This document shows, in pieces, positions 1,035 to 54,106 of a stretch of 64,000 nucleotides of DNA. The notes beneath the pieces were generated by a model that made no database searches, was not told where the DNA came from, and saw only the letters and a program-made list of their open reading frames with translations. A program made the translations under genes and the position numbers. This DNA comes from Candidatus Zambryskibacteria bacterium CG10_big_fil_rev_8_21_14_0_10_42_12. Its GTDB lineage: Bacteria > Patescibacteriota > Minisyncoccia > Phycocordibacterales > 1-14-0-10-42-12. The stretch lies in assembly GCA_002787695.1 (NCBI GenBank), contig PCXL01000011.1, positions 138,250 through 202,249 of the forward strand, read 5' to 3'. The stretch's first letter is position 1; every line of letters begins with the position of its first letter.

Positions 1035-1057
1035 GTTTGAAAAAATATATAAGCCGC

Positions 1058-1100
1058 CCCCGCCTGCCAGCGCCTGAAGTCGCAGACAATGGCGGGCAGG
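1058..1100. repeat. ~43-nt imperfect palindromic hairpin repeat, copy 1 (cccgcctgcc...ggcgggcagg), inserted in a tRNA-Thr 5' fragment
   Basis: A 10-bp stem (cccgcctgcc / ggcgggcagg, one mismatch) with a 22-nt loop. It is preceded by gccgcc and followed by ttagctca, which match tRNA-Thr positions 1-6 and 8-15. A reverse-complement copy lies at 1498-1542. Confidence 0.5.
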
Positions 1101-1358
1101 TTAGCTCAAATAAAATGGGGTATGTACTACACATACGTTCTAAAAAGTCAGAAAGATTATAACTTATATGTTGGCTGGACTGATGATTTGAAAGCGCGTA
1201 TACTTGCTCATAATTCTGGTAAAGTAATTGCAACGAAACCCAGAACTCCTTTGAGTCTTGTTTATTACGAAGCATGCTTATCAAAGGAAAAAGCAATTGC
1301 ACGAGAAAAATATTTAAAGTCAGGATTTGGGCGTAAGTTTTTGAAAAGCAGAATATAA
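1089..1358 (+). CDS. GIY-YIG nuclease family protein (UPF0213-like, ~80-89 aa)
   Basis: YTYVLKSQKDYNLYVGWTDDLKARILAHN plus KYLKSGFGRKFLK are GIY-YIG hallmarks (GIY..YVG, then R, then H/N). The true start may be the ATG at 1120 (MYYTYVL). Confidence 0.75.
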   Translation: MAGRLAQIKWGMYYTYVLKSQKDYNLYVGWTDDLKARILAHNSGKVIATKPRTPLSLVYYEACLSKEKAIAREKYLKSGFGRKFLKSRI

Positions 1359-1431
1359 GCCGCCTTAGCTCAGTTGGTAGAGCAACGCTTTTGTAAAGCG
1401 AAGGTCCCCAGTTCGAGTCTGGGAGGCGGCT
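1359..1431 (+). tRNA. tRNA-Thr (anticodon UGU)
   Basis: Manual cloverleaf: 7-bp acceptor stem gccgcct/aggcggc, D-arm gctc-agttggta-gagc, anticodon loop tttgtaa (34-36 = TGT), 5-nt variable loop, T-arm cccag-ttcgagt-ctggg. No CCA is encoded. Confidence 0.8.
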
Positions 1432-1497
1432 CTGAGTAAAACGAAGAGGTGCCTCCCAGACGGGGAAAGGGTCGGAAAATGGGAGTTTTCCGTGAAG

Positions 1498-1542
1498 CCT
1501 GTCCGCCATTACCTGTGCGGCTTCAGGCGTTGGCAGGCAGGG
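1498..1542. repeat. ~43-nt hairpin repeat, copy 2 (inverted copy of 1058-1100, ~85% identity)
   Basis: cctgtccgccattacctgtgcggcttcaggcgttggcaggcaggg aligns to the reverse complement of copy 1. Together the two copies bracket the GIY-YIG ORF and tRNA-Thr. Confidence 0.5.
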
Positions 1543-1708
1543 AAGGATTGGGGAAACCGTGGGTGAGATATGGGACGGGACCCATATTGCAAGACCTTTT
1601 GAGACGGTACTCCGTCCAAAAGGTGTACAGAATCTGTAAGATTTCCAATTTGTCTGCGGTGGCGGCGGTTTCTATAGACTTTTATTTTATTGCGAGAAAA
1701 ACTAAAAA

Positions 1709-51958: not shown

Positions 51959-54106
51959 ATGGCAGACTCGAACATTTTCAATTTGGTCTCTGAATTTAAG
52001 CCTTCTGGAGATCAGCCGCAGGCTATAAAGGCTCTGACAGAAGGTGTTAAATCTGGTCTCAAACACCAGACGCTGTTGGGTGTGACCGGGTCGGGTAAAA
52101 CATTTACGGCGGCAAACGTGATTCAAAATATTGGCAAACCGACTCTTGTTATTGCACATAATAAAACACTCGCCGCGCAGCTCGCTCAAGAATACAAAGA
52201 ATTTTTCCCTGAAAACGCAGTGCATTATTTTGTCTCTTATTATGACTATTATCAGCCGGAGGCCTATATGCCGGTTACTGATACATATATCGAAAAAGAA
52301 GCGATGATCAATGAGGAGATTGAGCGCCTTCGTCATGCGACAACGCAAGCACTCCTTACAAGACAAGACTGTATTATTGTCGCGTCTGTTTCGTGTATCT
52401 ATGGTTTGGGTTCTCCTATTGAATACGAAAAAGTAAATATGCGGATTGAGGTCGGACAAGCAATTTCTCGTAATGACTTTGCACGAAAGCTCATTGATAT
52501 TTTTTATAAACGAACGAATGCCGACCTCACACCAGGAGAATTTCGCGCGCTTGGAAATACGGTTGAGATTATGCCGGTATCAGAGAAAATCGTGTATCGC
52601 ATAGAATTTGCCGGAAATAATATAGAACATATTACAATAATCGATGCGATTACAAGAAGTGTGTACGAAGATAATGTGCCATCCTTCTTCCTTTTTCCTG
52701 CAAAGCACTTTGTGACGCCGGAAAACGAAATAAAGCGTGCAATAAAAAGTATTAAAGAAGAACTTGCTGATAGGCTTGCGGTTTTAGAAAAAGAAGGAAA
52801 GATCTTGGAGGCTGAACGACTCAAACGTCGGACAAACTATGATCTCGCCATGATCAAAGAAGTTGGATATACAAATGGTATTGAAAATTATTCTCGCCAT
52901 TTTGATAACAGAGCTCCTGGTGAACCACCTTATACACTCCTTTCATATTTTCCACATAAATCGGATGGGAGTCCGGATTTCCTCACCATCATTGATGAAT
53001 CGCACGTCACTATTCCGCAACTCGGTGGCATGTATGCGGGGGATCAGTCTCGTAAACAAAATTTGGTAGATCACGGATTCCGTCTGCCGAGTGCCCGAGA
53101 TAACAGACCTCTTAACTTTGAAGAAGTTGAAGAGAGGCTAGGACAGCGGATTTATACGAGTGCTACACCTGGAGAATATGAGAAAGAACATTCAAAGGAT
53201 CCGGCAGGGCAAGCCCGCCTGTCAGCGCCTGAAGGCTTAGTCGATGGCGGACAGGTCGTGGAACAAGTTATTCGTCCGACAGGACTGATTGATCCGCCTA
53301 TTTTTGTGCGCGGTGTTGTAGAGAGTGGTCCGTATAAAGGTCAGATTCAAGATTTCATAAAAGAGACAGTTGAGGTAGTAAAAGGGGATGGACGAGTAAT
53401 CGCAACGACGCTCACCAAGAAAATGGCAGAAGATCTCTCTGAATATTTGAAAGAGAAAAAAATAAAAGCAGAGTATCTACACAGCGACATTAAAACCATT
53501 GAGCGTATTGAGATTTTGACCGATTTTCGCCGTGGAAAGTTTGATTGTTTGGTTGGCGTGAATCTCCTTCGAGAAGGCCTCGATCTTCCCGAGGTTGAAT
53601 TTATTGGCATTCTGGATGCAGACAAAGAAGGATTTTTGAGGAGTGAGACGTCACTTATTCAAATCATTGGTCGAGCGGCGCGAAATATAAAGGGGCGCGT
53701 AGTTCTCTATGCCGACAACATAACCGGTTCAATGGAGAGGGCAATTGGCGAGACGAATCGTCGCAGAGATATTCAGATTGCGTATAACAAAAAACATAAT
53801 ATTACGCCGAAGACAATTATCAAGAAAATTGCCGATATCACCGAGCACATGAAAAGTGATCATGATAAGGCGGTCGCGGCAGATCTCAAGCGTGATGAAA
53901 AAATCTATAAGAAAAATCCAGAAAAACTGATTCGCATCAAAGAGAAACAAATGAATGCGTCAGTGAAAATCTTGGACTTCGAAACGGCAGCGCTCTTGCG
54001 TGATGAAATTACAGTGATAATGCAAAAACTAAAACAAGAGGAAAAAGAAAGTAATAAAGTGATAAAACAGGAGAAGGAAAGGAGTCAAAAAAGGAATACT
54101 CTGTAA
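51959..54106 (+). CDS. uvrB: Excinuclease ABC subunit B
   Basis: GVTGSGKTFT Walker A, DESH, helicase motifs, and a C-terminal UVR domain (ETAALLRDEITVIMQKLKQ). Confidence 0.95.
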   Translation: MADSNIFNLVSEFKPSGDQPQAIKALTEGVKSGLKHQTLLGVTGSGKTFTAANVIQNIGKPTLVIAHNKTLAAQLAQEYKEFFPENAVHYFVSYYDYYQPEAYMPVTDTYIEKEAMINEEIERLRHATTQALLTRQDCIIVASVSCIYGLGSPIEYEKVNMRIEVGQAISRNDFARKLIDIFYKRTNADLTPGEFRALGNTVEIMPVSEKIVYRIEFAGNNIEHITIIDAITRSVYEDNVPSFFLFPAKHFVTPENEIKRAIKSIKEELADRLAVLEKEGKILEAERLKRRTNYDLAMIKEVGYTNGIENYSRHFDNRAPGEPPYTLLSYFPHKSDGSPDFLTIIDESHVTIPQLGGMYAGDQSRKQNLVDHGFRLPSARDNRPLNFEEVEERLGQRIYTSATPGEYEKEHSKDPAGQARLSAPEGLVDGGQVVEQVIRPTGLIDPPIFVRGVVESGPYKGQIQDFIKETVEVVKGDGRVIATTLTKKMAEDLSEYLKEKKIKAEYLHSDIKTIERIEILTDFRRGKFDCLVGVNLLREGLDLPEVEFIGILDADKEGFLRSETSLIQIIGRAARNIKGRVVLYADNITGSMERAIGETNRRRDIQIAYNKKHNITPKTIIKKIADITEHMKSDHDKAVAADLKRDEKIYKKNPEKLIRIKEKQMNASVKILDFETAALLRDEITVIMQKLKQEEKESNKVIKQEKERSQKRNTL

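Follow-up and report, generated by a model that had tools for sequence, protein, structure and literature searches.

A mobile insertion family in bacteria of the Candidate Phyla Radiation: a GIY-YIG nuclease gene flanked by a dead 5' stub and an intact target gene

Results

Layout of the tRNA-Thr Locus

The stretch analyzed here comprises 64,000 nucleotides of Candidatus Zambryskibacteria bacterium CG10_big_fil_rev_8_21_14_0_10_42_12 (GenBank assembly GCA_002787695.1, contig PCXL01000011.1, positions 138,250 to 202,249; G+C content 41.6%) and is referred to as the window in the following. Near its left end, the tRNA-Thr(UGU) gene is split between nucleotides 6 and 7 by a 306-bp block that carries a small GIY-YIG nuclease gene, if compared with the empty allele of the relative L089. 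From left to right, the block consists of a hairpin palindrome (HP; this copy is HP1), nucleotides 7-14 of the tRNA, a 13-nt spacer, the GIY-YIG open reading frame (ORF) and a new copy of tRNA nucleotides 1-6 (Table 1). Since an intact copy of tRNA-Thr is regenerated behind the block, the target gene is not destroyed. It survives the insertion, and the nuclease gene lies on the same strand directly 5' of it.

A repeat finder detected two exact copies of the 12-mer ATATAAGCCGCC, 306 nt apart (1047-1058 and 1353-1364). The left one, termed stub A, is not present at the empty site if the window is aligned with L089. HP1 follows cleanly after tRNA nucleotide 6, without target-site duplication, and its deletion yields a 20-nt exact copy of flank and tRNA start. 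From the end of HP1 to the ATG of the GIY-YIG gene there are 21 nt, and the stop codon TAA (1356-1358) directly abuts the intact tRNA-Thr with zero gap. As DNA, the imperfect HP1 folds with -7.7 to -9.9 kcal/mol, at a z-score of only -0.7 to -1.8 against shuffled sequences. Its 18-nt core occurs three times in the 64 kb, while 0.05 occurrences are expected from shuffles.

An earlier note on this DNA, made from the sequence alone, had seen the 12-mer repeat one nucleotide too far left (1046-1057) and with a spacing of 307 instead of 306 nt. It had placed the hairpin correctly after tRNA nucleotide 6, yet described it as 43 nt at 1058-1100, where we find 42 nt at 1059-1100. The following sequence had been assigned to tRNA positions 8-20: eight nucleotides do match (nt 7-14), the rest (aataaaatgg) does not. 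Finally, the ORF had been given as 1089/1120-1358 with a 1-nt gap to the tRNA. Its extent of 1089-1358 stands, whereas the start moves to ATG 1122 based on homologues and the gap vanishes.

Table 1. Features at the tRNA-Thr(UGU) locus and elsewhere in the window. Positions refer to the window unless another locus is named.
Feature	Position	Strand	Description
Stub A	1047..1058	+	Left direct-repeat copy ATATAA+GCCGCC: 6 nt of flank and tRNA-Thr nt 1-6
HP1	1059..1100	+	42-nt GC-rich imperfect palindrome of class III: CCCGCCTGCCAGCGCC...ATGGCGGGCAGG
Stub B	1101..1108	+	TTAGCTCA, tRNA-Thr nt 7-14; joins stub A once HP1 is removed
Spacer	1109..1121	+	13 nt before the GIY-YIG start codon; not tRNA-derived
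GIY-YIG gene	1122..1358	+	78 aa and TAA; stand-alone Slx1-like/UPF0213-type domain
Intact tRNA-Thr(UGU)	1359..1432	+	ARAGORN 1359-1432; Rfam 1359-1431, 67.3 bits
Trailer hairpin	1417..1461	+	Last 17 nt of tRNA-Thr (1417-1433) pair with 1445-1461
Trailer module	1433-1700; L089 3516-3670; L166 979-1260; L127 5990-6200		No Rfam match
HP2	1498..1542	-	Inverted HP copy within the conserved trailer module
3'-end-like segment	1645..1666	+	ccaatttgtctgcggtggcggc compared with the tRNA-Thr 3' end ccagttcgagtctgggaggcggc; possible degenerate copy, weak similarity
HP3	53214..53255	+	Solo 42-nt HP, in frame inside uvrB (ORF 51959-54106)

Empty and Occupied Alleles

The gene upstream of the insertion (594-1034) encodes a hypothetical protein (hyp) whose orthologues lie in a conserved block, rpmE-prfA-rpsB-tsf-hyp-tRNA-Thr-...-glycosyltransferase-pheS. 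This allowed a comparison of the same site among syntenic relatives. In L088, L089 and L090, with hyp identities to the window of 83, 67, and 61%, tRNA-Thr(UGU) directly follows hyp and the site is empty, without GIY-YIG gene, stub or HP1; the tRNA of L089 is 100% identical to that of the window. In L092 (hyp identity 62%), the site is occupied and reads GCCACC, HP, TTAGATCAGTT-spacer-GIY-TAG-tatt-GCCACCTTAGCTCAGTT. Its GIY-YIG protein is 79% identical to that of the window, and its palindrome, 83% identical to HP1, sits after tRNA nucleotide 6 as well. Thus, the earlier proposal that a GIY-YIG gene had inserted into tRNA-Thr and left a functional tRNA is borne out by three empty sites and a further occupied one. 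The case envisaged against it, that orthologous loci would offer no empty site, did not occur.

The locus hence shows presence/absence polymorphism at one conserved site, between nucleotides 6 and 7 of tRNA-Thr, as homing genes do. Occupancy is patchy relative to kinship, which indicates gain or loss. Between the GIY-YIG copies of the window and L092, divergence at synonymous sites (dS) is 1.28 and the ratio of nonsynonymous to synonymous divergence (dN/dS) 0.12, so that the gene is probably functional and old; judged from these values, it is under purifying selection. Despite a dS above 1, each stub A matches its own tRNA (GCCGCC in the window, GCCACC in L092). Such a match next to old GIY-YIG copies points to continuing turnover or homogenization.

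The Same Architecture Across CPR Loci

To a family-profile scan with one genome per species we owe 80 further loci, giving 83 GIY-YIG loci in all. Within 100 nt behind the GIY-YIG stop codon, a tRNA on the same strand starts in 42 of the 83, mostly after 1-16 nt, and nearly all of these show the same order of stub A, HP, stub B, GIY-YIG gene and intact target. Such ORFs are thus found beside many tRNAs in other genomes of the Candidate Phyla Radiation (CPR). About a dozen tRNA isotypes are involved, including Gln, Asn, Thr, Lys, Glu, Val, Met, Phe, Leu, Pro, His, and Ala. For example, L001 and L006 share the layout of the window at tRNA-Gln, and in L002 the same layout has the 5' end of an NAD-epimerase gene as its target.

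In tRNA-adjacent loci, the sequence before the ATG consists of part A (flank and the first 5-20 nt of the tRNA), HP, part B (the next 5-18 nt) and a spacer. A GC-rich palindrome lies at most 60 nt before the ATG in 43 of 47 tRNA-adjacent loci; in the remaining four it lies between GIY-YIG gene and tRNA (L012, L027, L062) or is a diverged copy (L020). A palindrome profile (nhmmer) found HPs at 56 places in 485 kb. Of these, 37 lie 9-44 nt before a GIY-YIG ATG, with a median distance near 18 nt and in both orientations (24 plus, 13 minus). In about 30 loci, taking out the HP leaves a sequence exactly continuous with that of the intact tRNA (0-2 nt ambiguity, no target-site duplication), and the position of the HP in the tRNA varies there from nt 5 to nt 20 without consensus.

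Tandem units occur in L001, L019, L060, and L067, and the left repeat contains the last 10-30 nt of the GIY-YIG ORF in L020, L042, and L166; both would speak for repeated re-copying. At the epimerase loci L002 and L013, stub and intact copy share the GGAGF Rossmann motif and differ in their N-terminal codons. Because of this difference, it seems that the intact epimerase 5' end arrived with the element. The same Rossmann-motif duplication was found in L069. Taken together, these loci represent a mobile, polymorphic family of insertions of about 0.3 kb, in which a GIY-YIG gene follows a dead 5' stub and precedes the intact target.

Some loci deviate from this scheme. L012, L024, L027, L062, and L034 show the order GIY-YIG gene, about 60 nt, HP and tRNA. 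Here just 3-4 nt of tRNA precede the HP, whose own GGG terminus makes up the 5' end of the tRNA anew. The HP of L027 (Levybacteria) is nearly identical to the class III palindrome of the window. As for the left repeat of the window, it shares 6 nt of the GIY-ORF-tail kind.

A second GIY-YIG subfamily, mostly non-CPR and of 84-86 aa, has its ORF bracketed by a perfect inverted repeat of 9-14 nt, for example CCCCGTTAGAGA...TCTCTAACGGGG (loci include L058, L068, L072, L073, L078, L085, L086, and L087). Its left arm is situated 14-40 nt upstream of the ATG, and the right one overlaps with the stop codon. While the arms differ by locus, they stay complementary in 13 of 27 loci. Such an inverted repeat would fit a general partnership between nuclease and palindrome.

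The GIY-YIG Protein

ATG 1122 is regarded as the true start of the ORF because homologues almost all comprise 78 aa and begin with MYYTY; the product thus starts MYYTYVLKS. Look-ups of exact matches to this 78-aa product and to an 89-aa version gave no hit. It matches the Pfam profile PF01541 (GIY-YIG) with E=2.7e-14 and 53.6 bits, against a cut-off of 22.6, over profile positions 1-73 of 78. The 785 homologues, mostly of 78 aa, stem almost exclusively from CPR bacteria. Among 38 homologues, Y3, Y5, Y16, G18, R26, H30, E50, and E62 are invariant, and these include the Tyr/Tyr, Arg and Glu motif residues, to which catalytic roles are assigned in the GIY-YIG family.

The nearest solved structures in the Protein Data Bank are 1ZG2 (E=4.5e-5) and 1YWL. 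Both have been assigned to the bacterial Slx1 family as minimal GIY-YIG domains, a variant that lacks the C-terminal Asn found in the UvrC/homing lineage (PMC1564403). Likewise, the protein of the window is a single domain with neither an auxiliary domain nor an invariant Asn after E62, as is characteristic of the Slx1-like/UPF0213 type. Its catalytic domain fills all 78 aa and a sequence-reading domain is missing because no room is left for it; the sequence-specific DNA-binding module of homing endonucleases is thus lacking. Eukaryotic Slx1 enzymes are structure-specific nucleases; their substrates are branched or hairpin DNA and not particular sequences.

Other aspects of the family deserve mention. 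P0002 (134 aa) appears to be a tandem fusion of two GIY-YIG units. In addition, homologues in databases are spuriously extended at the N-terminus by stretches like MAGR, WRAG, LAMAGGS, or PPAIA, which are translated hairpin or stub DNA (P0034, P0036, P0052, P0057, P0058, P0072, P0087, P0093, P0111, and P0120). Phage carriage is unlikely, given a single relative in IMG/VR.

The Palindrome as a Dispersed Element

HP copies share their termini, CCCGCC(C/T)GC...GC(G/A)GGC(A/G)GG, and fall into size classes of 36, 42, and 47 nt. For a view that starts from the palindrome, we scanned metagenome contigs for HPs and took the first 80 loci (506 kb; HP-first scan). These contain 82 copies, four of which adjoin a GIY-YIG gene. 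Within 450 nt of a tRNA lie 14 copies, by estimate about fourfold more than expected from tRNA density. Another 14 copies are found deep in long ORFs, and their length is divisible by three in 13 of 14 cases, compared to 39 of 68 elsewhere. In 11 of these 14, the palindrome is antisense to the ORF.

The window itself provides an example of such an in-frame copy, HP3 in uvrB, a third hairpin copy that the earlier note had overlooked. UvrB contains an extra segment of 18 residues, DPAGQARLSAPEGLVDGG, inserted between EHS and VVEQ according to an alignment to Bacillus caldotenax UvrB structures, and about 14 of these residues stem from HP3.

Among the 36-nt palindromes, 25 of 47 represent one identical sequence, CCCGCCTGCAACGCTATGCGTAGCATTGCGGGCAGG, on unrelated contigs. 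Identical 36-nt copies stand beside GIY-YIG genes that average only about 53% nucleotide identity (ungapped, position by position). Nested palindromes were found in L047, L008, and L049. Neither a target consensus nor a universal target-site duplication was found for the HPs; however, a subset of solo copies carries flanking repeats of 6-10 nt. A perfect 7-nt duplication is present at 3 of 81 solo HPs (L099, L141, L164), and a common 6-mer in 11 of 81 flank pairs, where about one is expected. A preference of the HP for predicted hairpin loops, be it the D- or T-loop of a tRNA or the loop of another HP, was suggested by single cases (L102, L047, and L008) and is statistically unsupported (27 of 80 sites compared to 225 of 800 controls). 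On these grounds, the HP would be a separate, far more numerous element of CPR genomes that resembles MITEs (miniature transposable elements with inverted repeats), mostly solo and often in frame.

HPs also occur in dead tRNA sequences next to intact ones at loci without a GIY-YIG gene. In L108 (3858-4058), L167 (594-734), and L128 (2033-2110), an HP-split 5' stub precedes an intact tRNA of its own isotype at a distance of 20-85 nt. In L137 (583-800), an intact tRNA-Glu is located between HP half-arms in a dead tRNA-Glu that holds a full HP besides. L102 (1440-1700) has an intact tRNA-Thr(GGT) within a dead copy of tRNA-Thr(GGT) whose D- and T-loops carry HPs. L137 and L102 both resemble a self-rescuing tRNA replacement without GIY-YIG gene.

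Sequences Downstream of the tRNA and Neighboring Genes

Downstream of the intact tRNA, HP2 matches HP1 in two gapless blocks at 82-83%. The earlier note had rightly recognized it as an inverted copy, while its estimate of about 85% identity was slightly too high. HP2 is part of a trailer module composed of a GGGGTCGG-hairpin, an HP and GAAA..AAACCG, which is found in the window, L089, L166, and L127, in all four cases adjoining tRNA-Thr(UGU). In the GIY-less L089, the HP2 position is taken by cctgcctgcgcaggcaggg, a related palindrome of short length. Of about 50 GIY-tRNA loci, only the window and L166 show an HP downstream of the tRNA. Because L089 has trailer and palindrome without a GIY-YIG gene and because downstream HPs are rare, HP2 is best read as an independent or older insertion, i.e., a separate layer and not the right end of the GIY-YIG element.

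The trailer hairpin has an 11-nt gap, is 88% complementary, lacks a T-run and is kept in L089. It probably lies outside the GIY-YIG insertion. The 3'-end-like segment of 1645-1666 is present in L089 as well, and compared to L089 the window has about 80 extra nucleotides (about 1563-1640).

The Rfam scan of the window delivered two tRNAs only at the gathering score and nothing credible within 900-1800 at E values up to 10. As the Rfam matches are tRNAs only, a group I or tRNA intron or another known RNA element is ruled out. The neighboring ORFs (594-1034, 1449-1712, 1709-2470) gave zero Pfam matches, and no integrase was found among the ORFs scanned. A promoter and terminator scan of the insertion revealed one weak promoter-like match in the ORF, none above shuffled sequences, and no terminator. 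No further GIY-YIG genes were found in the 64-kb window.

Discussion

A Probable Homing-Type Gene and Its Palindrome

Based on the results above, we consider it rather probable that the locus is a homing-type selfish GIY-YIG gene paired with a MITE-like palindrome. The minimal selfish element at the locus, the stand-alone gene for the 78-aa nuclease, measures about 260 bp. Its mobility is evident from the empty and occupied alleles. The nuclease would break the 5' part of unoccupied targets, and the occupied allele would then serve as template for the repair in a homing-like manner. A donor-derived replacement 5' end is predicted from such a mechanism, which fits the differing 5' ends of the epimerase copies if compared to their stubs (L002, L013). 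A link between nuclease and hairpin we infer: the nuclease would act on DNA structure, with the HP as its putative cognate structure, because the protein is an Slx1-like domain only and because the HP keeps a fixed distance of about 18 nt upstream of the ATG, whichever way it is oriented. By analogy to repetitive extragenic palindromic (REP) sequences and their REP-associated tyrosine transposases (RAYTs), HP and GIY-YIG gene might form a pair of a non-autonomous and an autonomous element, the palindrome interrupting the old target copy in the stub. The leader position between tRNA promoter and tRNA would offer the GIY-YIG gene free expression and processing by RNase P.

Several observations weigh against this reading. 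A stub A that tracks the local tRNA is not predicted by a single old insertion. The intact downstream target should remain cleavable, and neither its immunity nor the founding event at a new type of target is accounted for. Furthermore, HP identity and GIY-YIG identity are uncorrelated (Mantel r about 0), for which reason simple co-inheritance of both as one unit was rejected. GIY-less 5' tRNA stubs, split by an HP and followed by a regenerated tRNA, exist in L108, L167, and L128, and consequently the duplication may not need the GIY-YIG gene, or the gene is often lost afterwards. Finally, the earlier note had considered that the hairpin might be generic and dispersed. From the side of the palindrome this applies, since 78 of 82 copies in the HP-first scan have no GIY-YIG gene inside the retrieved locus. 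From the side of the GIY-YIG gene, in contrast, an HP is near-universal (37 loci, 9-44 nt).

One might go further and speculate that the stand-alone Slx1-like GIY-YIG proteins of CPR bacteria and HPs of 36-47 nt constitute a new class of transposable elements, with a structure-specific nuclease for hairpin or cruciform DNA as the sole enzyme. We are doubtful about this extension. If such a class existed, the HP could tentatively be seen as its non-autonomous member that spreads in frame, while the GIY-YIG gene might persist in the leaders of tRNA or other conserved genes whose 5' ends it regenerates.

Alternative Explanations

Rather unlikely, though of some weight, is the view that two unrelated parasites share one safe landing pad. 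The GIY-YIG gene would insert with a long and variable target duplication, and another enzyme would move the HP into the dead left repeat, where it is neutral. Once there, the HP would interrupt the direct repeat, through which the GIY-YIG gene could otherwise be deleted, and so stabilize the insertion. Such independence would agree with the overwhelmingly solo occurrence of the HP, with the missing correlation between HP and GIY-YIG identity, with both orientations of the HP and with nested or multiple HPs in the stubs of L008, L047, L049, and L167. The flanking repeats of 6-10 nt at some solo HPs are, moreover, typical of insertions made by a transposase. However, chance landings fit poorly with a stub of 20-40 nt that is HP-occupied in essentially every tRNA-adjacent GIY-YIG locus, by our estimate hundreds-fold over the flanks, or with a near-constant distance between HP and ATG while the position in the tRNA ranges from nt 5 to nt 20. 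Besides, no candidate transposase was noticed in the window or the loci, though no systematic search was made.

We regard it as improbable that HP1, GIY-YIG gene, tRNA, and HP2 were inserted as one composite cassette that brought its own tRNA and left 5' and 3' stubs behind. L166 agrees with this picture: at an independent tRNA-Thr(tgt), it comprises stub and HP1, GIY-YIG gene, tRNA, trailer, inverted HP2 and then the tRNA 3' end with flank, copied exactly. The weak 3'-end-like segment of the window (1645-1666) and the intact tRNA-Glu between HP half-arms in a dead tRNA-Glu (L137) could be read in the same way. Yet neither a GIY-YIG gene nor a 5' stub is present in L089, which does possess tRNA, trailer, 3'-like segment and a palindrome in the place of HP2. 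A copy of the tRNA 3' end was found downstream in only 5 of 49 GIY-tRNA loci, compared to 3 in upstream control regions, and a downstream HP at two loci only. The cassette bracketed by two hairpin repeats that the earlier note had proposed is disfavored on account of the GIY-less L089 and the rarity of downstream HPs.

Very improbable is a housekeeping role of the protein in the host, e.g., in DNA repair or the metabolism of tRNA or other RNA, with co-transcription with the tRNA and stubs from ordinary tandem duplication: the strong purifying selection, a gene position that would allow co-transcription and prokaryotic Slx1-like domains fused to TrmH-type tRNA methyltransferase (PMC1564403) speak for it, but the presence is patchy among close syntenic relatives, the neighbors comprise a dozen tRNA isotypes and epimerase genes, tandem copies and truncated tails occur, and several copies per contig set as well as horizontal gene transfer calls were reported for CPR GIY-YIG genes (PMC12455944).

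Comparison with Known Systems

The homing-type gene with its palindrome recalls several known systems. Seg proteins of T4-like phages have about 200 or more aa and a C-terminal DNA-binding domain. The CPR protein, in contrast, comprises 78 aa, is domain-only, belongs to the Slx1-like lineage and resides in a cellular host; moreover, Seg insertions show neither target duplication nor hairpin, while the CPR element has both. Similar is the situation of T4 SegB, likewise a GIY-YIG gene near tRNAs, in a tRNA gene cluster and without intron or intein (PMC2330249; review PMC2988022). T4 Seg genes are preferentially inherited via a break in the endonuclease-less allele, with co-conversion of the flanks (PMC2330249; review PMC2988022). 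As at the CPR locus, the presence of T4-like Seg genes is polymorphic between relatives.

In fungal and chytrid mitochondria, GIY-YIG or LAGLIDADG ORFs insert at the end of a gene and bring a replacement end, e.g., in Allomyces atp6. The same mitochondrial genomes hold mobile GC-rich hairpins, namely double-hairpin elements and the GC clusters of yeast. Common to these and the CPR element are the substitute piece of the target, a resident pseudo-fragment and mobile GC-rich palindromes that are sometimes in frame. However, organellar ORFs usually replace the 3' end, lack a fixed hairpin-to-ORF arrangement and encode larger proteins.

RAYTs are HUH/Y1 transposases with covalent DNA intermediates, and REP palindromes are intergenic. 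Here as there, many short imperfect palindromes are dispersed, a few enzyme genes are characteristically flanked by them, and the neighboring enzyme is proposed to act on the palindrome. In contrast to RAYTs, the enzyme is a hydrolytic GIY-YIG nuclease and not of the HUH/Y1 type, and in contrast to REPs, HPs are often in frame in genes and stand as one copy upstream of the gene, not as a flanking pair. Rickettsia palindromic elements (RPEs) comprise about 100-150 bp and are not known to have an associated nuclease gene. RPEs, as mentioned in PMC1779305 and PMC10969869, resemble the HP as palindromes in frame within protein genes. With 36-47 bp, the HP has no relation to RPEs in sequence or size, and the resemblance is one of mode, not of family membership.

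Genomic islands and prophages that integrate into tRNA genes use a tyrosine integrase, regenerate the 3' end and comprise several kb. They share insertion into a tRNA, regeneration of a functional tRNA and a partial direct repeat with the element described here. Unlike them, it duplicates the 5' end, measures about 0.3 kb and has no integrase in the neighboring ORFs scanned. Thus, each known system shares one trait with the element and fails in others.

From CPR genomes, GIY-YIG ORFs have been mentioned within non-intron insertions in rRNA (PMC11270868), and horizontal transfer of GIY-YIG genes was reported (PMC12455944). The arrangement of stub, HP, GIY-YIG gene and tRNA is not described in either study. 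In the open-access literature we found no published description of the arrangement or of the HP family, although absence there is no proof. The element combines known kinds, a selfish endonuclease gene and a MITE-like palindrome, and there is a real chance that it represents a new class.

Significance

Small stand-alone GIY-YIG proteins (UPF0213/Slx1-like) are very common, and many of those in CPR bacteria read as selfish genes that target the 5' ends of tRNA or other conserved genes and keep the target alive. HPs pepper CPR genomes and are in frame even in essential genes such as uvrB. They bear on gene calling, where they cause spurious N-terminal extensions, on protein alignments and on the question of how many parasites tiny genomes tolerate. 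If the link between nuclease and hairpin is true, a 78-aa enzyme and a 36-nt DNA structure would form a compact system that could be reconstituted in vitro. If, beyond that, both constitute a new class of transposable elements, this would be the first biological role for the large UPF0213 family.

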